The notes below the pieces were generated by a model that saw only the letters and a list, made by a program, of their open reading frames with translations, made no database searches and was not told the origin of the DNA. This document shows positions 7,435-61,379 of a stretch of DNA of 64,000 nucleotides, piece after piece; within the stretch, counting starts at the first letter, position 1, and every line of letters begins with the position of its first letter. Location: positions 620,001-684,000 of the forward strand of contig NW_027590150.1 in NCBI RefSeq assembly GCF_964213995.1, in the 5' to 3' direction. A program made the translations under genes and the position numbers. This DNA comes from Mustelus asterias (taxonomy: Eukaryota).

Positions 7435-9459
7435 TCGAAACACAGAAAAACTACAGCACAATACCAGCCCTTCAGCCCACAAAGTTGTGCCGAACATGTC
7501 CCTACCTTAGCGATTACTAGGCTTACCTATAACCCTCTATCTTACTAAGTTCCATGTACTTATCTAAAAGTCTCTTAAAAGACCCAATCGAATCCGCCTC
7601 CACCACCGTTGCTGGCAGCCCATTCCACGCACCCACCAACCTCTGAGTGAAAAACTTACCCCTGACATCTCCTCTGTACCTACTCCCCAGCACCTTAAAC
7701 CTGTGTGGTCTTGTGGCAACCATTTCAGCCCTGGGAAAAAGCCTCTGACTATCCACTCGATCAATACCTCTCAACATCTTATACACCTCTATCAGGTCAC
7801 CCCTCATCCTTCATGTCTCCAAGGAGAAAAGACTGAGCTCACTCAACCTATCCTCATAAGGCATGTCACCTAATCCAGGCAACATCCTTGTAAATCTCCT
7901 CTGCACCCTTTCTATGATTTCCACATCCTTCTGTAATGAGGCGACCAGAACTGAGCACAGTACCCCAAGTGTGGTCTGACCAGGGTCTTATATAGCTGCA
8001 ACATTATCTCACGACTCCTAAACTCAATTCCTCGATTGATGAAGGCCAGTACACCATCCACCTTCTTAACCACAGCCTCAACCTGCACAGCTGCTTTGAG
8101 CGTCTTACGAACTCTGACCCCAAGATCTTTCTGATCTTCCACTCTGCCAAGAGTCCTACCATTAATATTATATTCCGCCATCCTATTTGACCTGCCAAAT
8201 GAACCACCTCACACTTATCTGGGTTGAACTCCATCTGCCACTTCTCCACCCAGTCTTGCATCCTATCAATGTCTCGCTGCACCTTCTGACATCTCTCCAC
8301 ACTATCCACAACACCTCCAACCTTTGTGTCATCAGCAAACTTGCCAACCCATCCTTTCACTTCCTCATGGAATTGCGGATAGCGAAGAGCATTGTCGGGC
8401 AATACAGCAGGATATAGATAGGCTGGAAAATTGGGCGGAGAGGTGGCAGATGGAATTTAATCCGGATAAATGCGAAGTGATGCATTTTGGAAGAAATAAT
8501 GTAGGGAGGAGTTATACAATAAATGGCAGAGTCATCAGGAGTATAGAAACACAGAGGGACCTAGGTGTGCAAGTCCACAAATCCTTGAAGGTGGCAACAC
8601 AGGTGGAGAAGGTGGTGAAGAAGGCATATGGTATGCTTGCCTTTATAGGACGGGGTATAGAGTATAAAAGCTGGAGTCTGATGATGCAGCTGTATAGAAC
8701 GCTGGTTAGGCCACATTTGGAGTACTGCGTCCAGTTCTGGACGCCGCACTACCAGAAGGACGTGGAGGCATTGGAGAGAGTGCAGAGAAGGTTTACCAGG
8801 ATGTTGCCTGGTATGGAGGGTCTTAGCTATGAGGAGAGATTGGGTAGACTGGGGTTGTTCTCCTTGGAAAGACAGAGAATGAGGGGAGATCTAATAGAGG
8901 TGTACAAGATTATGAAGGGTATAGATAGGGTGAACAGTGGGAAGCTTTTTCCCAGGTCGGAGGTGACGATCACGAGGGGTCATGGGCTCAAGCTGAGAGG
9001 GGCGAAGTATAACTCAGACATCAGAGGGACGTTTTTTACACAGAGGGTGGTGGGGGCCTGGAATGCGCTGCCAAGTAGGGTGGTGGAGGCAGGCACGCTG
9101 ACATCGTTTAAGACTTACCTGGATAGTCACATGAGCAGCCTGGGAATGGAGGGATACAAACGATTGGTCTAGTTGGACCAAGGAGCAGCACAGGCTTGGA
9201 GGGCCGAAGGGCCTGTTTCCTGTGCTGTACTGTTCTTTGTTCATCCAGGTCATTTATAAAAATCACAAAGAGTAAGGGTCCCAGAACAGATCCCTGGGGC
9301 ACTCCACTGGTGACCGACCTCCATGCAGAATATGACCCGTCTATAACCACTCTTTGCCTTCTGTGGGCATGCCAGTTCTGGATCCACAAAGCAACGTCCC
9401 CTTGGATCCCATGCCCCCTCACTTTCTCAATAAGCCTTGCATGGGGCACCTTATCAAGT
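7435..9459 (-). mobile_element. CR1 LINE (5'-truncated, RT region), split by nested insertion 8369-9240
   Basis: RT motifs [22 protein letters not shown] (9245-9459) continue as EEVKGWVGKFADDTK (to 8368); ttcca at 7430-7434 and 9460-9464 is a likely TSD. Confidence 0.88.
8369..9240 (+). mobile_element. young CR1 3' fragment nested in the minus-strand CR1
   Basis: Uninterrupted ORF2 C-terminus to 9172, intact tail; tcat at 8365-8368 and 9241-9244. Confidence 0.92.
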
Positions 9460-13077: not shown

Positions 13078-15183
13078 TCACTCGTGAACTTGCTGGTGCC
13101 TCAGCAGCCGGGATGAAACGCTGAAACCCTTCCCACACACAGAGCAGGTGAACGGCCTCTCCCCAGTGTGAACTCGCTCGTGCGTCTGCAGGTTGGATAA
13201 CTGAGTGAATTCTTGCCCGCACTGAGAGCAGGTGAACGGCCTCTCCCCAGTGTGAACTCGCTGGTGTGTTTGCAGGTTGGAAAGCTGAGTGAATCCCTTC
13301 CCACACTGAGAGCAGGTGAACGGCCTCTCCCCTGTGTGAACTCGCTGGTGTGCCCGCAGGCTGGATGACTGAGTGAATCCCTGCCCACACTGAGAGCAGG
13401 TGAATGGTTTCTCCCCTGTGTGAACCCGCTGGTGTGTCCGCAGGTCGGATGACCGAGTGAATCCCTTCCCACACTGAGAGCAGGTGAATGGTCTCTCCCC
13501 AGTGTGAACTCGCTGGTGTGTCTGCAGGCTGGATAACCGAGTGAATCCCTTCCCACACTGAGGGCAGGTGAACGGTCTCTCTCCAGTGTGAACCCGCTGG
13601 TGTGTCCGCAGATGGGTTGACCGAGTGAATCCCTTCCCACACTGAGAGCAGGTGAACGGCCTTTCCCCAGTGTGAACTCGCTGGTGTGTCTGCAGGCTGG
13701 ATAACTGAGTGAATCCCTTCCCACACTGAGAGCAGGTGAACGGCCTCTCTCCAGTGTGAACTCGCTGGTGTCTCTGCAGGCTGGATAACTGAATGAATCC
13801 CTTCGCACACTGAGAGCAGGTGAATGGTCTCTCTCCGGTGTGAACTCGCTGATGTGTCTGCAAGTGGGATGACAGAGTGAATCCCTTCTCACATTGAGAG
13901 CAGGTGAACGGTCTCTCCCCAGTGTGAACTCGCTGATGTCTCTGCAGGTGGGATGACCGAGTGAATCCCTTCCCACACTGAGAGCAGGTGAATGGGGGCT
14001 TCTCCCCAGTGTGAACTCGCTGGTGTGCCCGCAGGTCGGATGACCGAGTGAATCCCTTCCCACACTGAGAGCAGGTGAACGGCCTCTCCCCAGTGTGAAC
14101 TCGCTGGTGTGCCTGCAGGTTGGATAACTGATTGAATCCCTTCCCACACTGAGAGCAGGTGAACGGCCTCTCCCCAGTGTGAATTCGCTGGTGTGTCAGC
14201 AGGCTGGATGACCGAGTGAATCCCTCCCCACACTGAGAGCAAGTGAATGGCCTCTCCCCTGTATGAACTCGCTGGTGTGTCCGCAGCTCGGATAACTGAA
14301 TGAATCCCTTCCCACACTGAGAGCAGGTGAATGGCCTCTCCCCAGTGTGAACTCGCTGGTGTCTCTGCAGGCTGGATAACTGAGTGAACCTCTTACCACA
14401 CTGAGAGCAGGTAAATGGCCTCTCTCCAGTGTGAACTCGCTGGTGTCTCTGCAGGCGGGATGACTGAGTGAATCCATCCCCACACTGAGAGCAGGTGAAC
14501 GGCCTCTCCCCAGTGTGAACTCGCTGGTGTATCTGCAGGCTGGATAAATGAGTGAATTCCTTCTCACACTGAGAGCAAGTGAACGGCCTCTCTCCAGTGT
14601 GAACTCGCTGGTGTCTCTGCAGGTGGGATGACTGAGTGAATCCCTCCCCACATTGAGAACAGGTGAACGGCCTCTCTCCAGTGTGAACTCGCTGGTGTGA
14701 CTGCAGGCGGGATGACCGAGTGAATCCCTCCCCACACTGAGAGCAGGTGAATGGCCTCTCCCCAGTGTGAACTCGCTGGTGTGTCTGCAGGCTGGATAAA
14801 TAAGTGAATTCCTTCTCACACTGAGAGCAAGTGAACGGCCTCTCTCCAGTGTGAACTCGCTGGTGTCTCTGCAGGCTGGATATCCGAGTGAATCCCTTCC
14901 CACACTGAGAGCAGGTGAAGGGCCTCTCCCCAGTGTGAACTCGCTGGTGTCTCTGCAGGTGGGATGACTGAGTGAATCCCTCCCCACATTGAGAGCAGGT
15001 GAACGGCCTCTCCCCAGTGTGAACTCGCTGGTGTCTCTGCAGGTTGGATAACTGACTGAATCCCTTCCCACATTGAGAGCAGATGAACGGCCTCTCCCCA
15101 GTGTGGCTGCGCCGATGAGCTTCCAGCTCTGATGGGGTTCCGTATCCCTTCCCACAGTCCGCACATTTCCATGGTTTCGCCAT
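13078..15183 (-). CDS. Z2: tandem C2H2 zinc-finger protein, 25 fingers, no effector domain
   Basis: 701-aa intact ORF, 25 CxxC-x12-HxxxH units with TGERPF linkers; start context accATGg; splice acceptor ttttccag near 15535. Confidence 0.93.
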
Positions 15184-15689
15184 GGTGCAGGTGTCCTTAC
15201 CTCACTCTTGAGTGGACAATTAGTTGAAACTTCGTCCACACACAGAACAAGATTACAGTCTCCACCTGCTGTGAATGGTGTGATATTTATTCAGACTGTG
15301 TAACTGGTTAAAGCTCTTTAGTCAGTGCATCGGAACACTCTCACTCGAGTGTGGCAGTGTGTTGACGCTTTTTCACTCACACTGACATTTCAAATCTTTT
15401 CAAATCGACAGACTGGACAATCATTTCTCCTTCTGGATTCAAAGTCCGATGATATTGAGGTCCCAAGGAATATGACTCTGTCAGATCTAGACGTGACGTT
15501 TGAGATTTCAGCCTGTGATTCCTCTTTCAATATCCTGGAAAATGAGTTTCCAAAAGTCATCAGTGTCAGTACAGGATAGAAATTCAGAACAGACAATTTC
15601 TATGGAACATTCTTTCCTCTCTCATTCAGAGGGTGGGTTCTCCCCCGCATATGCACAGCTTCCCCTCTCCCTCACACATTTTGCAGTCC

Positions 15690-16760
15690 CGGGCGGGGGG
15701 AGGGGGAGATCACCGAGCGGCTTCTCGCTCTGGCCAGAGCCGTCAGCCGGTTGCCTGGAAACCTTGGCTCGATGTGGTGTAGGGGGAGGGGAACAATGGG
15801 TGGGGGCAGGGCTCCCGGGTCCGCACGCCCGGGCCTGCACCATGGAACCCGGAGACATCACCGCGGAGCGCAGTGATTCCTATTGGCTGATTCAGGCAGG
15901 GTTCTATCGTAGCGTCACAATGCGGAAGTTGTCCAATGAGCTTCAGAGTGAAATTTCGCTCTCCGATCACATTCCATTGTGACGTCACACACTCACCCAT
16001 TCCATTGTGATGTCACACCCTCACCCATTCCATTGTGACCTCACACTCTCACCCATTCCATTGTGACGTCAGGGCTTCCCTCTCCGATCACAATCCCTGC
16101 CGGCCTCCCACATGCAGCCTCAATGGCGGCAGTCAGCCCGGGTCTAACACTACAAGCTGCCGCTCCATTTGGTACAAAGGGGGGACCGGGAAGTTCATTT
16201 CCGGGGTTTGGGTTTGAACAACATGTTTACAAAGTCTCTCCACCCACTCGCCACATTTATCATTCCCCGCGCGCCGCCCCCTACCTAGTATTGATCTCGC
16301 CTCCAAATTAAAACCGCCCGTCTACCCGTCGCCATTACCCGCACTGCGCATGCTTCAGGTCCCGCCTCTCATTCACTCCGATTGGTTGGAGGATCAGCCG
16401 CTCCCGCTCGGTCCTCCAGTCCCGCCCCTCGTTCACTCCGATTGGTTGGAGGACCAGCCGCTCCGGCTCGGTCGGCCAGTCCCGCCCCCTCTTCCTATTG
16501 GTCCGGAGCTGCCGTCAATCAGTCCCCGGGCATTGTGATGTGGAGCATGCGCAGTGTCATTGCTGTCCTTGGCGCTTGTTTGTCCCGGAGAAGCGGAGTC
16601 AGCGTTAGGCGGTGGCTGGGAGGATTTGGAAACACTTTGTGGATCCGCAAACCCTTCAGAATCATTGTCAGCTCCCTGGTTTGCAGCTGCGGGGCTTCTC
16701 CCTCCCTCCCTCCCTCCCGGGAACAGGCCCAGGTTAACGGCCCCATCCTGGCTCAGCCAC
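15690..16760. promoter_or_regulatory. CpG-island divergent promoter region for Z2 (-) and Z3 (+)
   Basis: CpG-rich; CCAAT/ATTGG boxes, GC boxes, TGACGTCA (15980, 16064), NRF1-like tgcgcatgc (16346), candidate donors ctcg|gtgatc (- near 15714) and cccag|gttaac (+ near 16733). Confidence 0.75.
15970..16071. repeat. 28-bp tandem repeat (3.6 copies) carrying CRE-like sites
   Basis: cattccattgtgacgtcacacactcacc unit at 15970, 15998, 16026, 16054. Confidence 0.9.
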
Positions 16761-16980
16761 TGGAGGATGGTTCACATCAGAGGATGGGGGAGGGGGACAA
16801 TAAATAAGAGGTTACACTTTGGCCTCAAATCAATGAGGACTCTGATCTCTGGGAAGGAAGGAAACCCTGGGAGGTGGGCGGGGAGGATTCACAAACACCC
16901 GCTGGAGGCCCCAACACCCCCAATAAGACCCATTGGTTTTATTGTCAGTCTGCAGACAGCAGCTGGAGAACTGAACCCAG

Positions 16981-17265: not shown

Positions 17266-17864
17266 AGAACTGAACCCAGACAGAGGAGAGGGAGGGAGAA
17301 AACTGGGAGTGGAGGGAAGAAATGGTGGAGATGTTGAGATGGGTTTGGATTTCAGTCCAGGGGAGGAGGTAGAGTGTGTGGGACGGGGATTTATAGATTT
17401 GGGGGAACAAGAGAGGAAAATATGTTCCAGAGAAACTATGAATTGTCTGTTCAGAATTTCTATCCTGCACTGACAGTGATGGTATTTGTAAACTGTTTTT
17501 GCAGGGTATTATGAAGCAGGATTTACAGATGTGAAACTCAAACCAAACTTCACATCAAGATCTGTTTCAGTGATTTGATTCATCAGAAACTGAATATCAT
17601 CAGCCTTTGTCTACAGAAGGAGAAATGTTCATTCTGTCTGCGGGCAAAGATTTCAAACATCAGTGTGACTGAAAAAGCACCTAGACACACAAACACACCT
17701 GAGAGTTTCCAATGTGCTGAATGTGGAAAGTGGTTTAACAAGTCTGAAAAATAATCACATCATTCTAACTGAGTAGTGACCCGACACATATTCTGTGTAA
17801 ACGAGGCTTCAACTCATCATCCAACCTGGAGTCACATGAGGACACCCGCAGCACAGAGAAACCA

Positions 17865-25704: not shown

Positions 25705-26919
25705 TCAGCAGGTGGGATGACTGAGTGAATCCCTTTGTGAATCCTTGTGAACTCGTTGGTGTGTCTGCAGGTGGGATGACTGAATGAATCCCTTTCCACA
25801 CTCAGAGCAGATAAACGGCCTCTCTCCAGTGTGAACTTGCTGGTGACTCTGCAGATAAGATGAAAGAGCGAATCCTTTCCCACACTCAGAGCAGGTGAAT
25901 GGTCTCTCCCTGGTGTGAACACGTCGGTGTGCCTGCAGGTTAGCTGAACGAGTAAATCCCTTCCCACACTCAGAGCAGGTGAACGGCCTCTCCCCGGTGT
26001 GAACTTGCTGGTGATTCTGCAGGTCAGATAACTGAATGAATCCCCTGCCACACTCGGAACAGGTAAATGGCCTCTCCCTGGTGTGAACCTCCTGGTGTGA
26101 CACTAGGTGGGATGATTGAATAAAACGCCTCCCACACTCGGAGCAGACGAATGGCCTCTCCCTGCTGTGAACTCCCTGGTGTGACATTAGGTGTGACGAT
26201 TGGATAAAACGTTTCCCACATTCGGGGCAGCTGAATGGCCTCTCCCTTGTGTGTGTTCCTTTGTGTGTCACTAGATGTGATAACTGAATAAAACGCTTCC
26301 CACACTCGGAGCAGGGGAACGGCCTCTCCCCCCTGTGGACTCCCTGGTGAGTCACTAGGTGTGATAATTGAATAAAACACTTCCCGCACTCAGAGCAGTT
26401 GAAAGGCCTCTCCTTAGTGTGGGCTCGCTGGTGTATCTGCAGGTGAGATGACTGAGTGAAACCCTTTCCACAGTCGGAGCAGGTGAATGGTCGCTCTCCG
26501 GTGTGGATTTGTTGGTGATTCAAAAGTTCAGATGAATGATTGAATTGCTTCCCACACTCAGAGCAGTTGAATGGTTTTTCCCCAGTGTGAACTTGCTGGT
26601 GTGTCAGCAGGTGGGATAACTGAGTGAATCCCTTCCCACACTCAGAGCAGGTGTACAGCCTCTCCCTACTGTGAACTGCTTGGTGATTCCACAGGTCGGC
26701 TGCCTGGAGAAAACCCTTCCCACACTCAGAGCAGATGAAGGGCCTCTCCCCAGTGTGGCTGCATTGATGAATCTTCAGGGCAGATGGGGAGCAGTCTCCT
26801 TCCCCACACTTGGAGCAGGGGAACAGTCTCTCCCCAGTGCGAATATGTTGATGAGTTTGCAGTGCAGACGGGATATGGAATTCCTTACCACAATCCTCAT
26901 CTTTCCCCGGTTTCTCCAT
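25705..26919 (-). CDS. Z4: C2H2 zinc-finger protein, 13 intact fingers plus a degenerate first finger
   Basis: ORF open from accATGg at 26919; last finger partly deleted, giving [13 protein letters not shown]; acceptor ttttacag at 27255. Confidence 0.85.
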
Positions 26920-28199
26920 GGTGTGGATGTCCTTGTGTCTTTCCAGGTTTAACAATCAGTTAAATCCTCATCCACACATAGAGCATGTGCACTGTCTGTC
27001 CCCGCTGTAAATGATGTGATATTTTTGCAGTCTGTGTAACTGGTCTTTTGACAGTCAGTGTACTGGACACTCTCACTCAGGCCTGTGTTTCTTGGTGCCT
27101 TTCCAGTCACACTGATGTGACAGAAAAAACAGATAAATATTTCTTCTTCTAGATTCAAAGTCTGATGATATTCAAGTTCTGATAATTTGAGTGACTCTAT
27201 TAAGCCTTAACATGTTTTGAGATTGCTGGCAGCAAATCTTCCCCTTATAACTTCCTGTAAAATGAGTTTACAAAAGTCATCACTGTCAGTATCAAACAGA
27301 AATTCAGAATAGACAATTCTAGTTTCTGTGGAACATTTCTTCCTTTCTCGTTCCTCTCGATCTGTACATCTCCATCCCACACCCTATCCCTGTCTCCTCA
27401 CTCTGCTGTATGTATAATACACCCTTCCAATTCTCCTGAAGGTGTTGATTCATGCTGATCAACAAATCCATACTCACTGCTTCTTCTCCAGCACTGAGAT
27501 ATCTTCATGCAGGCTGCCAGTCTAAATACCTAAATATACTTAGTGAAGTAAAATGTATGTAACATAGGGGACCAGTTTAATAAATAGAAGTACAGCAAGG
27601 CTATGAGATAGAACATTATTTCAACAGTGAACATTCTTGAATATCAATTGTTTGGCTATGAGGGTGGTGCATTTTGATACATTCAATATTTCAAAATGAA
27701 ATTAGATGGGCAGTCAAAATAGACTGGCAGGGGAGCAGGGATACAGACGGGATGAGGAGCATATCAGCCATGATTGAATGGCGGAGTGGACTCGATGGGC
27801 CAAATAGCCTAATTATGCTCCTATATCTTATGAACTTAAGGGGGAATGGGACTGACTGGATTGCTCTACAGAGAGTTAGCATGGACTTGAGTTGCTGAAT
27901 GGACTCCTTGTGTGATACAATAACCCGATTACTGAAAATAAACGACTTAGTTACAGTATTAACAAAACTAAAAATAATAAAAAATGAACTTTATTACTGG
28001 ACCATGCATAATATATCTAATTTGTATCATCTTACAAGACTGCACACATCTCTGTCCTATATTAATTTACTGCCCCTTAAATTTCAGCTATTTCCTCGGG
28101 AAATCACCCCTTTAAATTGTGAACATTAGGAAAGAGACCATCCTCTTAACCAGACAAATAAATGTGACAAGTTGAGGAAGCAAAGGATGGCAATGTCTT

Positions 28200-29469: not shown

Positions 29470-29710
29470 ATCAGTTTCAAATTTCTATCCTGTGCTTACA
29501 TTCATTGCTTTGATAGATGTTTTTATTGACAAGGGATTAGAATGGAAGGATTTTCAGTCAGAAACATCTTGATTCATTCGGACACGACTATCATCAGTGA
29601 TCAAATGTCAGAGGAACACTGATGCCCTGTTCAAAAAGATTTCAATCATCAGTGCGAATGGAAAAGTTGTGTGATGCACATTCCCAAGAGAGAGAGAGAG
29701 ATTTCCAGGA
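29470..29710 (+). pseudogene. Z5: remnant of a subfamily A zinc-finger exon 2 (5' part only)
   Basis: aatttctatcctgtg...gacaagggattagaatggaaggattttcag...aagatttcaatcatcagtgcgaatggaaaag matches the 5' end of exon 2 of Z3/Z8. Confidence 0.65.
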
Positions 29711-29759
29711 AAAGAGACATAAGAATATATGGACAAATGAACTATGAGCAGGCCACTCA

Positions 29760-30527
29760 GGCCGTTTCAGTGCTCAGCACCGACAACTGCCAGTTTCCAG
29801 ATGCAATTTTACAACTCATCCGCTTAATCCTGGACCACAATGTCTTCACCTTCAACAACCAGTTCTTCATCCAGACACACGGAACAGCCATGGGGACCAA
29901 ATTTGCACCTCAATATGCCAACATCTTCATGCACAGGTTCAAACAAGACATCTTCACCGCACAGGACCTTCAACTGATGCTATACACTAGATACATTGAT
30001 GACATTTTCTTCCTTTGGACTCATGGTGAACAATCACTGAGACAACTATATGATGACATCAACAAGTTCCACCCCACCATCAGACTCACCATGGACTACT
30101 CTCCGGAATCGGTTGCATTCTTGGACACACACATCTCCATTAAGGACGGTCACCTCAGCACCTCACTATACCGCAAGCCCATGGATAACCTCACGATGCT
30201 CCACTTCTCCAGCTTCCACCCTAAACACGTTAAAGAAGTCACCCCCTATGGACAAGCCCTCCGTATACACAGGATCTGCTCGGATGAGGAGGATCGCAAC
30301 AGACACCTCCAGGCGCTGAAAGATGCCCTCATAAAGAACAGGATATGGCGCTCAACTCATCGATCGACAGTTCCGACGTGCCACAGCGATAAACCGCACC
30401 GACCTCCTCAGAAGACAAACACGGGACATGGTGGACAGAATACCCTTTGTCGTCCAGTACTTCCCCGGAGCGGAGAAGCTACGGCATCTCCTCTGGAGCC
30501 TTCAACATGTCATTGATGAAGACGAAG
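29760..30527 (+). mobile_element. Penelope-like element reverse transcriptase fragment
   Basis: QTHGTAMGTKFAPQYANIFM, RYIDDIFFLW, HPTIRLT, FLD, LYRKP, SSFHPKH motifs; frameshift near 30335. Confidence 0.9.
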
Positions 30528-31128: not shown

Positions 31129-32403
31129 TCACTTATGAATTCGCTGATGCGTCAGCAGGTTGGATTTCCGAGTGAATCCCTTCCCACACTTGGAGCAGGT
31201 GAATGGTTTCTCCCCAGTGTGAACTCGCTGGTGTTCAATTAGTATCGACGATCGACTGAACCCAGTCCCACATTGAGAGCACATGAATGGCCTCTCGTCA
31301 GTGTGAACACGTTGGTGGGACCTCAGATCTCCAGATCGTTTGTAGCACTTCCCACAGTCTGGGCATTTGAAAGGTCTCTCCTCAGTGTGAACCCGCTGGT
31401 GAGCCATGAGTTGGGAGGACTGAGTGAATCCCTTCCCACAATTGGAGCAGGTGAACGGTCTCTCCCCAGTGTGAATTCGCTGGTGTTCAGTGAGATGGGA
31501 TGATTGCCTGAATCCAATTGCACAGTGAGAGCATCTGAACGGTTTCTTGTCAGTGTGAACATGCTGATGGGATTTCAGTTCTCCAGAACTTTTATAGTAA
31601 TTCTCACAGTCGAGGCACTTGAAAGGTCTCTCTCCAGAGTGAACCCGCTGGTGCACCATGAGTTGGGATGACCGACTAAATCCCTTCCCACACTCCGTGC
31701 AGGTGAATGGCCTTTTCCCAGTGTGAATTCGCTGGTGTACAGTGAGTTGAGATGATTGCCTGAACCCAGTCCCGCAGTGAGAGCACCTGAACGGTCTCTC
31801 CTCAGTGTGAACACGTTGGTGGTACGTCAGTTCCCAGGAACTTTTATAGCCCTTTCCACATTCTGCACAGTGAAAAGGTCTTTCCTCCGTGTGAACTTGC
31901 TGATGGCGTGTCAGTTCCCGGGAACTTTTAAAGCACTTCCCACATGCTGGACATTTAAAAGGTCTCTTGTCAGTGTGAACTCGCTGGTGTGATAGCAGGT
32001 TGCTTGTGTGAATGAATCCCTTCCCACACTGGGAGCAGGTGAATGGCCTCTCCCCGGTGTGAACTCTCTGGTGTACCAGCAGATTGGAGGACTGAGTGAA
32101 TCCCTTCCCACATTTGGAGCAGGTGAATGGTCTCTCTCCAGTGTGAACTTGCCGGTGTCTCAGCAGGTTGAACGACTGAGTGAATCCTTTCCCACACACA
32201 GAGCAGGTGAACGGCCTCTCCCCAGCATGAACTCGCTGGTGAATTTCCAGTTCAGATGGGGAATAGAATCCTTCCTCGCAGTCCCCACATTTCAACGGCT
32301 TCTCTTCAGTGTGACGGCACTTGTGGTTCGTGGGGTCAGATGATTCATACACAGAACACGCGTACAGATTCTCCCCACTGCAATCGATGCTTTTTTCTTC
32401 CAT
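31129..32403 (-). CDS. Z6: C2H2 zinc-finger protein, 14 fingers (subfamily B start MEEKS)
   Basis: Intact ORF from aacATGg at 32403; acceptor tttcacag near 32516. Confidence 0.9.
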
Positions 32404-36800: not shown

Positions 36801-37397
36801 TCTGTTTTTAACTGGGTCCTAGTGCCCGAGTCACATAAAAGGATCAGTCACACTGGTCAGAACTTTCTGGTTCAGTTCGGAAGGTTCCCTTTGGTTTTGT
36901 TGATGCTTGGTTGTTGATTTTTGTCTTTCAGTTCGTTTGGACCATATGATTGGAGGGAATAAGAAAGGAAAGAATGTTCCATCCGAACTAGAATTGTCTG
37001 TTCTGAATTTCTATCCTGTATTTACACTGATAACTTCTGTAAACTCCTTTTACAGGGGATTAGGATGGGAGGATTGACAGGTGGGAAACTTAAATCAAAC
37101 ATCACATTGAGATCTGACAGTCATTCGATTCATCAGGACCTGAATATCAATGTGGAAGGAGAAATGTTTGTTTGTTCTGTCTGTGGGAAAAGATTTCAAA
37201 CATCAGTGTGACTGGAAAAGCAGCGAGACACACACACCCGAGTGACAGCGTTCCAGTGAACTGACTGTGAAAAGAGCTTGAACCAGTTACACAGCCTGAA
37301 AAAACATCACACCATTCACAGCAGGGAGGAACCGTACATGTGCAGTGTGTGTAGTCAACTGATCATCAACCTGGAGAGACACAAGGATACTGGCACC

Positions 37398-38781
37398 ATG
37401 GAGAAACCATGGAAATGTGAGGAACATAGAACAGTACAGCACAGAACAGGCCCTTCGGCCCACGATGTTGTGCCGAGCTTTATCTGGAACCAAGATCAAG
37501 CTGTCCCACTCCCTATCATCCTGGTGTGCTCCATGTGCCTATCCAATAACTTCTTAAATGTTTCTAAAGTGTCTGACTCCACTATCACTGCAGGCAGTCC
37601 ATTCCACACCCCAACCACTCTCTGCATGAAGAACCTACCTCTGATATCCGTCCTGTATCTCCCACCACGAACCCTATAGTTATGCCCCCTTGTAATAGCT
37701 CCATCCACCCGAGGAAATAGTCTTTGAACGTTCACTCTATCTATCCCCTTCATCATTTTATACACCTCTATTAAGTCTCCCCTCAGCCTCCTCCGCTCCA
37801 GAGAGAACAGCCCTAGCTCCCTCAACCTTTCCTCATATGACCTACCCTCCAAACCAGGCAGCATCCTGGTAAATCTCCTCTGCACTCTTTCCAGCGCTTC
37901 CACATCCTTCTTATAGTGAGGTGACCAGAACTGCACACAATATTCCAAATGTGGTCTCACCGAGGTCCTGTACAGTTGCAGCATAACCCCACGGCTCTTA
38001 AACTCCAACCCCCTGTTAATAAAAGCTAACACACTATAGGCCTTCTTCACAGCTCTATCCACTTGACTGGCCATCCCAGCTGGAAATCCATCAGCGCACT
38101 CACACTGGGGAGAGGCCATTCACCTGCTCCATGTGTGGGAAGGGATTCAGAGAGTCATCCAACCTGCTGCAACACCAGCGAGTTCACACTGACCTGAGAC
38201 CTTTTAAATGCCCAGACTGCGGGAAGGGCTATAAAAGTTCTGGGGACCTGATGTCCCATCAACGTGTTCACACTGACCAGAGGCCATTCAGGTGCTTTCA
38301 CTGCGGGACTGGGTTCAGGAAATCATCTGAATTCACTGTACATCAGCGCACTCACACTGGGGAGAGGCCGTTCACCTGCTCCATGTGTGGGAAGGGGTTC
38401 ATTAATTCATCCAACCTGCTGAGACACCAGCGCACTCACTCTGATGCAAGAACTTTCAAATGTCCTGACTGTGAGGAGAGCTTTAAAAACAGTGATAATC
38501 TGCTGAGACATCGACGCACTCACACTGGAGAGAGGCCGTTCACCTGCTCTGAGTGTGGGAAGGGATTCACTCGATCAGCCGCACTGCTGACACACCGGCG
38601 AGTTCACAGCGGAGAGCGGCCATTCGCCTGCTCGGAGTGTGGGAAGAGATTTACTTATTCATCTCATCTATTGAAACACCAGCGCACTCACACTGTGGAG
38701 AGACCATTCACCTGCTCCATGTGTGGGAAGGGATTCACTCAATCTTCTAACCTGCTGACACACCAGCAAATTCACAAGTGA
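37398..38781 (+). pseudogene. Z8: zinc-finger gene split in finger 1 by an antisense CR1; distal 216-aa ORF (7 intact fingers) still open
   Basis: accATGgagaaaccatggaaatgt at 37398, CR1 37422-38070, array resumes [11 protein letters not shown] at 38071; ATG at 38131. Confidence 0.82.
37422..38070 (-). mobile_element. young CR1 3' fragment inserted in the Z8 coding exon
   Basis: Uninterrupted ORF2 C-terminus (to 37496) with tail; no TSD, about 24 bp of target lost. Confidence 0.92.
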
Positions 38782-43887: not shown

Positions 43888-44973
43888 CTACAGGTTGGAT
43901 GAATTACTGAATCCCTTCCCACACTGAGAGCAGGTGAATGGTCTCTCTCCGGTGTGAACTCGCAGGTGTGTCTGCAGGTGGGATGACTGAGTAAATGCTT
44001 TCCCACAATCAGAGCAAGTGAATGGCCTCTCCCCAGTGTGCACTCGTCGGTGTTTCTGCAGATTGGATGCATCTGGGAATCCCTTCCCACAATCGGGGCA
44101 GGTCAACGGTCTCTCCCCAGTGTGAACTCGCTGGTGTATCAACAGATGCGATGAATCAGTGAATCCCCTCCCACATTCGGGGCAGGTGAATGGCCTCTCC
44201 CCAGTGTGAATTCGCTGGTGCATCAACAGATGGGATGAGCGACTAAATCCCTTCCCACAGGTAGAGCAGGTGAATGGTTTCTCCCCAGTGTGAACTCGTT
44301 GGTGCATCAGCAGACTGAATGAATCACTGAATCTCATCCCACACATTGAGCAGGGGAATGGTCTCTCTCTGGTATGAACCCTCTGGTGCATCAGCAGGTT
44401 GGATGAATCAGTAAATCCCTTCCCACACTCGGAGCAGGCGAATGGCCTCTCCCCAGTGTGAACTCGCTGGTGCCTCAGCAGGTTGGATGAATCACTGAAT
44501 GCCTTCCCACACTCAGAGCAGCTGAATGGTCTCTCCCCGGTGTGAATGCGCTCGTGTGACTGGAGGCGGGATAACTGAGTGAATTCCTTCCCGCACTCCG
44601 AGCAGGTGAACCGCCTCTCCCTGGTGTGAACTCGCTGGTGCATCAACAGGTTGGATGAATCACTGAATCCCTTTCCACAATCGGAGCAGGTGAATGGCCT
44701 CTCCCCAGTGTGAACTCGCTTGTGTGTCAGCAGGTGGGATGAACTTGTGAATCCTTTCCCACACTCAGGGCAGGTGAATGGCCTCTCCCCTGTGTGAACT
44801 CGTTTGTGTGTCTGCAGGGAGGATGAATGAGCGAATCCCTTCCCACACTCCAAGCAAGTGAAAGGCCTCTCCCCAGTGAGACTGCGTCGATGAGTTTCCA
44901 TCTGATATGGGAAATTGAATCCTTTACCACAGTCTCCACATTTCCATGGTTTCTCCATGGTGTAGGTGTCCAT
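43888..44973 (-). CDS. Z9: C2H2 zinc-finger protein, 11 intact fingers, premature TAG in finger 13 of 14
   Basis: 361-aa ORF (family ATG 44958); the same frame continues with intact finger sequence to TGA at 43780-43782. Confidence 0.8.
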
Positions 44974-45589
44974 GTGTCTCTCCCAGTTTGACAGTCAGTT
45001 GAAGCCTTGTCCATACATAAAAAACCTGAATAGTGACTAGTGATGTCTTTTCAAGCTGTGTAACTGGTTGAAGCTTTATTCCACAGTCAGTGCACAGGAA
45101 CACCCACTCATGTCTGTGTCTCCACGTTTTCCAATCACACTTATGGTTGAAATCTCTTGAAGCAGACAGAACAGAGAAATATTTCTCTTTATAGATTCCA
45201 AAGGCTGATGTTGTTCAGGTCCCGATTTATCAAGTTAATCTGGCAGATCACCACGAATATTTGTTTTGAGAAGTCCAATTCTGATATTCTGTAAAATGAG
45301 TTCCAAAATTCATCACTGTCAGTGCAACTTAGAAATTCAGAAAAGACAATTCTAGTTTTTATAGAAAATTCTTTACTTTCTCCCGCCATTCTTACCCTGC
45401 ATCTAATACACATCATAGAACAACACTCGACATATCCCTGTCCTGTATTAATTTACTGTCTCCTTAATATCAGCTATCTCCTGGGGATCCACCCCTTTAA
45501 TTGTGACCATTACGAATATAGACCATCCTTTTAGCCAGACAAATAAATGTATTAAGCTGAGGGAGCTAAAGAATGTTAATGTCTTTAAA

Positions 45590-56080: not shown

Positions 56081-56602
56081 TCGCTGGTGTTTCAGCAGCT
56101 GGGATGACTGAGTGAATCTCTTCCCACACTCAGAGCAGGTGAATGGCCTCTCCCCAGTGTGAGTGCGCTGGTGTACAGTGAGATGAGATGATTGTCTGAA
56201 CCCAGTCCCACATTGAGAGCACCTGAATGGTCTCTCATCAGTGTGAACACGTTGATGGTACATTAGTTCCTGACAATTTTTATAACACTTCCCGCAGTCC
56301 AGACATTTAAAAGGTCTGTCCTCACTGTGAACACTTTGGTGTGTCATCAGGTTAGATGAATTAATGAATCCCTTCCCACACACACAACAGGTGAATGGCC
56401 TCTGCCCTGTGTGACCACGCTGATGAATTTCCAGCTGTGATGGGTAATTGAATCTCTTTCCACAGTCCCCACATTTCCACGGCTTCTCCCTGTTGTGACT
56501 GCATTTGTGTCTTGACAGGCCGGATGATTGGCTGAAGTCTCGCGCACACACAGAACATGTGTACGATTTCTTCCCACTGTGAATGGTGCTTTTTCCTTCC
56601 AT
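56060..56602 (-). CDS. Z12: C2H2 zinc-finger protein, 5 fingers plus a truncated sixth (subfamily B)
   Basis: aacATGgaaggaaaa start; stop codon lies in the antisense CR1 tail (HQRAYEHKN*). Confidence 0.75.
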
Positions 56603-59680: not shown

Positions 59681-60230
59681 ATGATGGGATAGGAGGAGAT
59701 GTGTGTCGAGTATAAACAACAGCAGGTTAGTTGGACCAAATGGACTGTTTGTGTCTGATAAGTTTGAAGTAATTCAATTTAAACTCCTTTCGCAGAATAT
59801 TTGCAGATTGGAAATTCAAACTGAATATCATGTCAAGATTGGTCAGAGTCACTTGATTCATCAGGAGCTGATCATCATCAGCCTATGAATGTGGAAGGAG
59901 AAATGTTGTCTGTTTTGTCTTTGGGAAATGATTCAAATATCAGTGTGACTGGAAAAGAACCGAGACACACATCTAAGCGATTTTCCGCAGTTTTCTGGAA
60001 CAGAGCTTTAACCAGTCACACAGCATGAAAAGAAACTGCACATTTACATCAGGAGACACCTTACTCGTGTTGTATTTGTGGATCAGGCTTCAACTGATTA
60101 CCATATGAACAAGGAACAGCAACAGGCCATTCGGCCCCACCAGCCTGCTCTGTCATTTAATAACATCATGGCTGATCTGATAGTGACTTCAAATCTCACC
60201 CCACCTACGCCCAATAACCTGTCGTTAACC

Positions 60231-61379
60231 ATGGAGAAACCATGGAAATGTGGAGACTGTGGGACGGGATTTAATTACCCGTCTGAATTGGAAACTCATC
60301 GACGTATTCACACTGGGGAGAGACCGTTCACCTGTCCCGTGTGTGGGAAGGGTTTCACTCAGTCATCCAGCCTCTACACACACCAGCATGTCCATACCGG
60401 TGAGAGGCCATTTACTTGTCTTCAATGTGGGAAGGGATTTAATGCTTTATCAAACCTCCAGACTCACTACCAAGTTCACTCTGATCAGAGACCGTTTAAA
60501 TGTTGTGACTGTGGGAAGAGTTTTAAAAGTAAAACGGATTTATTGATTCACCAACGCACTCACACTGGGGAGAGGCCATTCATCTGCTCCGTGTGTGGGA
60601 AGGGATTCACTCAGTCATCCCACCTCCTGACACACCAAAGTGTTCACACTGATCAGAGACCATTTAAATGTTCTGACTGTGAGAAGAACTTTAAAAGTAA
60701 AAAGGATTTACTGATTCATCAACGCACTCACACTGGGGAGAGGCCGTTCATCTGCTCCGTGTGTGGGAAGGGATTCACTTGTTCATCCCAGATCCTGAAA
60801 CACCGATTTGTTCACACTGATCAGAGACCTTTCAATTGTTCTAAATGTGAGAAAACATTTAAAAGCAAAAAGGATCTTCTGAAACACCAAAACACTCACA
60901 CTGGGGAGAGGCCGTTCATCTGCTCTCTCTGTGGGAAGGGATTCACTCGATTAGCCCACCTTCTGAGACACTATCGAGTTCACACTGGGGAGAGGCCGTT
61001 CACCTGCCCTGTGTGTTGTCAGGAATTCATTGATACATCTGACCTTCTGATACACCGGCGAGTTCACACTGGAGAGAGACCTTACACTTGCCTCCGGTGC
61101 AGCAAGAGATTCACTCAGTCATCCCACCTGACTACACACCAACTTGTTCACACTGATCAGAGACCTTTTGAATGTTCTGATTGTGAGAAGAGATTTAAAA
61201 GTAAACAGAATCTGCTGAAACACCAGCGAGTTCACACTGGGGAAAGGCCGTTCAACTGCTCCATGTGTGGGAAGGGATTCGCTCAGTCAAACAACCTGCT
61301 GAAACACCAGCAAGTTCACAGGCGACAGCAGGGGTTGGATTCTGCTGTTATTGCTGCTGTTCATCACACCCAGGACTGA
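60231..61379 (+). CDS. Z13: C2H2 zinc-finger protein, 13 fingers plus C-terminal tail [19 protein letters not shown]
   Basis: Intact ORF from accATGg at 60231 (in-frame upstream ATG at 60105); closest paralog of Z3. Confidence 0.9.

Follow-up and report, generated by a model that had tools for sequence, protein, structure and literature searches.

The window, meaning the whole 64-kb stretch of Mustelus asterias DNA analysed here, contains about 12 C2H2 zinc-finger arrays among LINE fragments on a contig of the 3.68-Gb genome, and close annotated relatives of the window proteins come from sharks. One of the genes, Z2, is a classical Krüppel-type poly-C2H2 gene with tandem C-x2-C-x12-H-x3-H fingers and TGEKP-type linkers in one ORF. 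It belongs to subfamily A, whose predicted proteins start six residues before the Cys of the first finger. The stretch between the acceptor of the Z2 finger exon and this start is called the fossil leader below. Z2 and its upstream region have the following features:

15650..16800, no strand: CpG-rich region separating Z2 and Z3, which lie head to head; approximate limits
15535..15536, minus strand: predicted 3' splice site AG of the Z2 finger exon
15425..15534, minus strand: fossil acidic linker, frameshifted in Z2 (40 codons in intact paralogs)
15351..15424, minus strand: fossil finger 1, beginning with an upstream ATG; the 15-codon uORF opened by this ATG ends at stop 1
15377..15379, minus strand: stop 1, TGA, ancestral TGG (Trp)
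15271..15335, minus strand: fossil finger 2, approximate limits, contains a slowly evolving 40-nt core
15184..15258, minus strand: fossil finger 3, approximate limits
15220..15222, minus strand: stop 2, TAA in Z2 and TGA in the majority of copies; the codon probably derives from CGA
15181..15183, minus strand: predicted start codon at the Gly of the linker between fingers 3 and 4, with A at -3 and G at +4
13078..15183, minus strand: Z2 main ORF, 701 aa, 25 C2H2 fingers, no other domain seen

The finger exon of intact paralogs opens one base before the first full codon, corresponding to a phase-2 intron. The upstream ATG at fossil finger 1 is present in 56 of 88 subfamily A copies. The CpG-rich region likely serves as shared promoter and first exons of Z2 and Z3. 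Three types of promoter/first-exon module, with CCAAT and GC boxes, recur in this region (15650-16800) and in its paralogs, and neighbouring genes often lie head to head on them.

The presence of decayed fingers before the start codon of subfamily A genes, as put forward in the original prediction, proved to be real, and the leader could be resolved into a decayed 40-codon linker followed by three C2H2 fingers. A finger profile was built from the 111 coding fingers of the window and applied to the fossil frames, with 630 shuffled frames (maximum 4.8 bits) as a control. Five of the seven fossil segments in the window outscored all shuffled frames: Z4 reached 26.4 bits, Z8 22.9 and 14.4, Z3 12-15, Z2 11.8 and Z9 8.4. 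Z13 (4.7 bits) and Z5 (3.9 bits) did not exceed the shuffle maximum. Pfam zf-C2H2 matched the Z8 segment, with X at the TGA, at E=5e-4, below the gathering cut-off. The segment also aligns to intact paralogs, and it is C2H2-derived beyond chance. The refuting outcome named in the original prediction, a segment that fails to score as C2H2 in a profile, was not obtained.

Related segments were identified at the following positions in the window:

17505..17855, plus strand: Z3 fossil segment; stop 1 is present at 17666, whereas stop 2 and the ATG are lost
26917..27254, minus strand: Z4 fossil segment and ATG, followed by a 404-aa ORF
29655..29657, plus strand: Z5 fragment with CGA at the stop-1 site, likely a secondary state
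37056..37400, plus strand: Z8 fossil segment, three fingers in a single frame; gene broken downstream
44956..45288, minus strand: Z9 fossil segment and ATG, followed by a 356-aa ORF
59891..60233, plus strand: Z13 fossil fingers, insertion after stop 2, ATG at 60231, 382-aa ORF
32401..32403, minus strand: Z6, subfamily B start ATG, 424-aa ORF
56600..56602, minus strand: subfamily B start ATG, 180-aa ORF

All of the predicted codons at stop 1 (TGA at 15379, 17666, 27109, 37209, 45137 and 59946, CGA at 29655 in Z5) are present in the sequence, as is the TGA at 60095 in Z13. The second stop lies 39 nt before the ATG in Z2 (as TAA), Z4 and Z9, as had been stated; the distance is 38 nt in Z8 and, due to the insertion, 136 nt in Z13. 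This insertion of about 97 nt after stop 2 (60098-60230) adds two upstream ATGs that share the frame of the main ORF. Z3 has TCA at stop 2 and ACA in place of the start ATG (17853-17855); it still has an open finger array of 329 codons, before which no in-frame ATG is found. Z8 is broken after seven codons by a LINE reverse-transcriptase fragment (37419-38119), and its remaining fingers lie at 38023-38781. The Z5 fragment continues into a reverse-transcriptase-like ORF (29623-30516), which presumably carries a Penelope-like motif.

When the genome was searched with the 353-nt leader, 2485 first-pass candidates were obtained, and 40 scored matches had 97-100% identity. In seven blocks chosen by position, the family linker was identified upstream of 106 of 110 finger arrays, and in three of the remaining four fossil finger residues were directly visible. 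From 157 linker matches, 99 were assigned to class A and 14 to class B, while 44 were dropped as too decayed or fragmentary; the main set consists of 88 non-redundant A copies with less than 95% identity. A 22-mer around stop 1 that allowed at most one mismatch to the TGG form was found at 1033 places in the genome, with TGG in just 29. At 27 of these 29 a TAA is present four codons earlier and one more is a short fragment; an A-type copy with TGG or CGA in a basal position was not seen among the copies compared. Subfamily A comprises more than a thousand gene copies with a fossil-finger leader.

The stops and the start codon are widely shared among these copies. Stop 1 is TGA in 83 of the 88 A copies and stop 2 is present in 75 (68 TGA, 7 TAA). 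An ATG occupies the start site in 74, of which 73 have A at -3 and 72 have G at +4. A separate replicate block gave similar values (stop 1 in 10/10, stop 2 in 8/10, ATG in 10/10). Genome-wide, stop 1 was TGA in 96 of the 100 matches listed out of 424, and the start site was ATG in 96 of the 100 listed out of 536, with GGG or AGG in none of those listed. Copies with at least six fingers had the ATG in 55 of 59 cases compared with 28 of 39 for the others (p=0.008). No such enrichment in copies with intact arrays (59 vs 39) was observed for the stops, the upstream ATG or the acceptor AG, the latter being present in 53/59 and 33/39 copies (p=0.53). The comparison supports the view that the linker-derived ATG has been kept by selection in intact arrays. 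Translation likely begins at this ATG. Many copies have several upstream ATGs, and in 74 A copies 20 uORFs overlap the main ORF; such overlapping upstream ATGs could lower the use of the proposed start.

The ancestral state of these codons could be read from intact paralogs. Two genes, L031 (contig C1, 376 aa) and L147 (contig C857, 418 aa), have a frame without stops that runs from the same acceptor across the linker and fingers 1-3. Between them, fingers 1-3 have pN of 0.12-0.26 and pS of 0.67-0.92, and by this measure both genes appear to be under purifying selection across the segment equivalent to the fossil. Stop 1 corresponds to TGG in L031, L147 and a pair of pseudogenes on C4. It is therefore concluded that stop 1 arose from a Trp codon by mutation to TGA and that the CGA of Z5 is not the ancestral state but likely secondary. 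The stop-2 site is CGA, CGC, CGT, CAA or CAG in B copies and the C4 pseudogene, suggesting that stop 2 probably arose from an ancestral CGA by CpG deamination. At the start site GGG is found in L031, GGC in L147 and GGG, AGG or AAG in B copies. The ATG would accordingly have replaced the Gly codon in a TGEKP-type linker, a change that takes two substitutions and for which AGG is a plausible intermediate.

Several features of these paralogs and related matches were recorded in addition. L147 (positions 1492-2745 of its sequence record, from C857) has third positions strongly shifted to G+C (0.84-0.94), 4 kb of simple GA-rich repeats before the gene, and a last finger ending with a degenerate His and a Pro/Gln tail. 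The C4 pseudogenes (L207-L209, at 68.86 and 70.18 Mb) are near-identical and frameshifted; they still have TGG at the stop-1 site and CGA at that of stop 2 and, like L031, an ATG at linker codon 3. Two stop-free matches, C2706:19159 and C71:20199087, were rejected as intact paralogs: both are 5'-truncated, and the latter stops after finger 2 and nests inside subfamily A. When the N-termini of L031 and L147 were used as protein queries, no shark orthologs were obtained among 13 and 44 candidates, respectively.

Indels in the fossil amount to 1.3-1.9 per 100 nt per copy and are mostly frameshifting, compared with 0.34 in finger 4. New stops were found in 151 of 6305 fossil codons and in 7 of 2417 codons of finger 4, and divergence is flat over the codon positions of the fossil and not flat in finger 4 of intact arrays. 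By these patterns the leader is no longer under coding constraint. In a tree of 28 of 98 A rows, 14 of 15 B rows (one A/B chimera excluded) and 3 outgroup rows, the A rows lie on one side of a branch with support 100/99 and form an open star shape, and the B branch is set apart from A with support 100/96. When the stop-2 and ATG columns were omitted, A was not resolved as one branch, which was also not rejected (p-AU 0.44), and B was weak.

For subfamily B, the predicted lack of the first two fossil fingers and the retention of the third were borne out: fingers 1-2 are missing and finger 3 is intact in most rows. A stop is found at one linker codon in 11 of the 15 B rows and an ATG nine codons later in 12. 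At the site of A stop 2, B copies have CGA/CAA-type codons and at the A start site GGG/AGG-type codons. The expected ATG could be identified in two of four B-type 5' segments in the window (32403 and 56602), but the other two have ATA (50674) and ATT (34239). Nor is this start new, as had been proposed, since L031 has an ATG at the same codon. An open-linker B gene was identified on C2706 (L204, ~7800-9040, minus strand), where the linker is open from the acceptor and the gene encodes 410 aa; a Heterodontus model also contains such a gene. The C2706 gene may be a B copy in which an upstream exon is still in use. A further copy on C71 (~9.84 Mb, block position 151306) combines the B-type 5' deletion with an A-type finger 3, stop 2 and ATG, pointing to recombination between the subfamilies. 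Subfamily B likely represents an independent shortening, by deletion of fingers 1-2, its own linker stop and the use of an older internal Met. The claim of one truncated founder for the whole family is thus not upheld, as B has its own linker stop, an intact finger 3 and a separate branch.

Other readings of the two stops have to be weighed against a single truncation. It might be argued that the stops are read through or recoded, so that the upstream fingers are still part of the protein. UGA followed by CUG is a leaky stop context and Trp is a common product of UGA readthrough; stop 1 is seen in the sequence to be followed by CUG and its ancestral residue is Trp. However, in 70 of 96 copies the frame of stop 1 differs from that of the main ORF, and readthrough is therefore excluded as a general rule. 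At least 60 open codons precede finger 4 in just 2 of 97 copies and most fossil indels shift the frame, which makes this reading highly improbable. That the stops arose recurrently at CpG hot spots, and not once in the founder, would agree with the probable origin of stop 2 from CGA, with one B copy that has its own TGA at the stop-2 site, and with the unresolved position of A in the tree after omission of the trait columns. Stop 1, however, derives from TGG, which is not a CpG site, and 83 of 88 copies of a star-like radiation share it along with stop 2 and the ATG. Recurrence is very unlikely on these grounds.

The uneven evolution of the leader, part of which forms a slow core, counts against plain drift and raises the question whether the fossil was exapted as a shared cis-regulatory element, acting as DNA or RNA, which helps to control the whole family and was retained for this reason. 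The 40-nt core of fossil finger 2 changes at 0.58 of the base-corrected rate (0/2000 permutations as low); together with ~20 nt around stop 1 it changes at about 0.6-0.7 of the rate of the rest of the leader. Stop 1 requires 4 parsimony changes compared with a median of 23 over 303 windows (rank 1) and 15-28 at seven other TGA triplets, and only 2 changes in 150 sites were counted among 51 divergent copies. Yet, counted genome-wide, the G of stop 1 has 40 variants (28 of them TAA), about as many as the neighbouring G (45), both counts being inflated by duplication. Furthermore, the core is just as slow in broken as in intact copies, it is absent from subfamily B, and the uORF ends at stop 1 in just 27 of 74 copies. 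Class A was, moreover, defined partly by a match to the leader region itself, an ascertainment effect that calls for caution. Consensus folding of the leader alignment gave zero energy for both real and shuffled alignments and hence says nothing on structure. Exaptation as a cis-element is thus considered unlikely. The same holds for its wider form, an improbable one, according to which the dead fingers (slow 40-nt core and near-invariant TGA motif) would form a family-wide element for joint gene control and truncation to a bare array would have enabled the expansion.

It had also been proposed that the stops explain why the family has no N-terminal effector, an ancestral effector on an upstream exon having been disconnected by them. 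The intron phase and the open linker are indeed kept in L031, L147 and the B copy on C2706. In L147 the linker before the first ATG looks coding (pN 0.30, pS 0.73, GC3 0.70 vs 0.33 for the A consensus), and an upstream coding exon is therefore probable, lying off its contig. However, no effector was found on the intact paralog L031. The 93 open stretches of at least 45 aa in ~19 kb upstream of L031 gave only retroelement and lipase-like matches in a Pfam scan, which left out a long LINE ORF and may miss short exons. The sole in-phase candidate exon there, located ~1.8 kb upstream in a CpG island (1.5-2 kb upstream), consists of an ATG and 12 codons with a strong donor in the correct phase. This 13-codon exon could be due to chance, because its ATG is located in what we take to be a YY1-like motif.

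Nor did the upstream regions of A and B genes yield a coding exon conserved across the family. The A and B genes have at least three upstream modules (in 20, 34 and 8 of 102 copies) with no obvious in-phase ORF, and the candidate donors in the module consensus are in phase 0 or 1 and not in phase 2, although this is a weak test. Three ORFs in 15650..16800, upstream of Z2 and Z3, had no Pfam match. A genome search for KRAB (PF01352) gave no hit, though controls were also unrecovered; no KRAB on an upstream exon could be identified upstream of Z2/Z3 or L031, and the main ORFs themselves open with the fingers. For the KRAB zinc-finger genes an origin in bony fishes is argued in the available part of PMC11603059, and the available part of PMC8455134 counts KRAB among the families missing in cartilaginous fishes. 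Since no effector was found upstream and the origin of KRAB is placed in bony fishes, the family may have lacked an effector before the stops arose, and the loss of one through them is regarded as doubtful.

The truncation of the founder of subfamily A by two stops, with a new linker ATG and a leader made of a dead linker and three fingers, and with B shortened separately, is considered quite probable. The ~350 bases before the A start are the broken remains of a linker and three fingers. Two codons, TGG and likely CGA, would have mutated to TGA in the founder, while an ATG newly formed on a linker glycine codon, so that the upstream part likely became a 5' untranslated leader. Since the founder's linker and three fingers would thereby have become untranslated, the products of A genes are likely finger arrays and nothing else. 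A burst of expansion of the truncated form to over a thousand copies would have followed, at a time when several shark orders had not yet split, and the leader would have been mostly drifting since, with the new ATG held by selection. Lost were presumably the linker, three fingers and whatever the upstream exon supplied; that a folded effector was among these losses is doubtful. Two parts of the original prediction are in line with this account: that nonsense mutations cut the founder of A agrees with TGG in the intact paralogs and TGA in 83/88 copies, and a strong-context start from TGEKP to TMEKP agrees with the Gly codon (GGG/GGC) of the paralogs, the A at -3 and G at +4 and the signs of selection on the ATG.

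The fossil segment is likely included in the mRNA, as judged from contigs of four runs presumed to be RNA that cover it; one of them spans 15213-15537 and ends at the acceptor. A splice junction into the acceptor was not among the joints listed, and two listed contigs cross acceptors unspliced. Gene models of other species were collected from NCBI and UniRef, where few were usable from the representative set, long finger arrays dominating the matches. Heterodontus models read the fossil in shifted frames, and the residues that they give there are compatible with TGA or CGA at stop 1 but not with TGG, and call for T-N-A at stop 2. The A-type linker was found in Carcharodon and Scyliorhinus models, a Pristiophorus model starts at the same start, and B-type starts are present in Heterodontus, Scyliorhinus and Cetorhinus models. 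We take these genera to represent four orders and both main shark lineages. In shallow searches no ray or chimaera protein was seen. The shark models, named 'zinc finger protein 850/271/91/ZFP2-like' in NCBI and UniRef, share the MEKPWKC start or have B-type starts, and some read fossil pieces in shifted frames; their names are generic, several are chimeric across neighbours, and the origin of the leader is undescribed in them. Atlas searches returned generic zinc-finger clusters. No description of this leader was found in the literature covered, most subscription papers being outside it, and the available part of PMC3126818 holds nothing relevant to the leader.

The finding is one of evolutionary anatomy: a large transcription-factor family that was apparently born from a broken gene, with ancestral codons, intact outgroup genes and the new start in one genome. 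It would set the probable true N-terminus for more than a thousand badly annotated shark genes. As cartilaginous fishes are said to be without KRAB zinc-finger families (available parts of PMC8455134 and PMC11603059), a family without a silencing module of its own sharpens the question how these fishes use zinc-finger clusters.

Among known systems, the tetrapod KRAB zinc-finger clusters are alike in being tandem poly-C2H2 clusters with the fingers on one last exon behind a spacer, and in their lineage-specific duplication and recurrent loss of N-terminal domains by degeneration (Tadepally 2008, PMC2443715, available part). In contrast to them, no KRAB or SCAN was found in the shark family, whose founder appears to have lost fingers and spacer to the leader, and it is the truncated form that expanded. 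The loss of effector exons is described in the available part of PMC2443715, but a new start in a finger linker is not. The FiNZ genes of cyprinid fish likewise represent a large, fish-lineage tandem C2H2 expansion without KRAB (Wells 2023, PMC10547256, available part). FiNZ proteins have a conserved acidic N-terminal domain of 28 aa and their repression of transposons has been demonstrated (same part of PMC10547256), whereas the subfamily A ORFs leave no room for such a domain unless an upstream exon is in frame. The terms shark, chondrichth and cartilag do not occur in the main text of PMC10547256. The shared leader offers a single target for probing the whole family, as was done with FiNZ in zebrafish (PMC10547256, available part). 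New here is a tandem zinc-finger family that carries a fossil leader and apparently stems from a truncated founder, and it is kin to these known tandem expansions.
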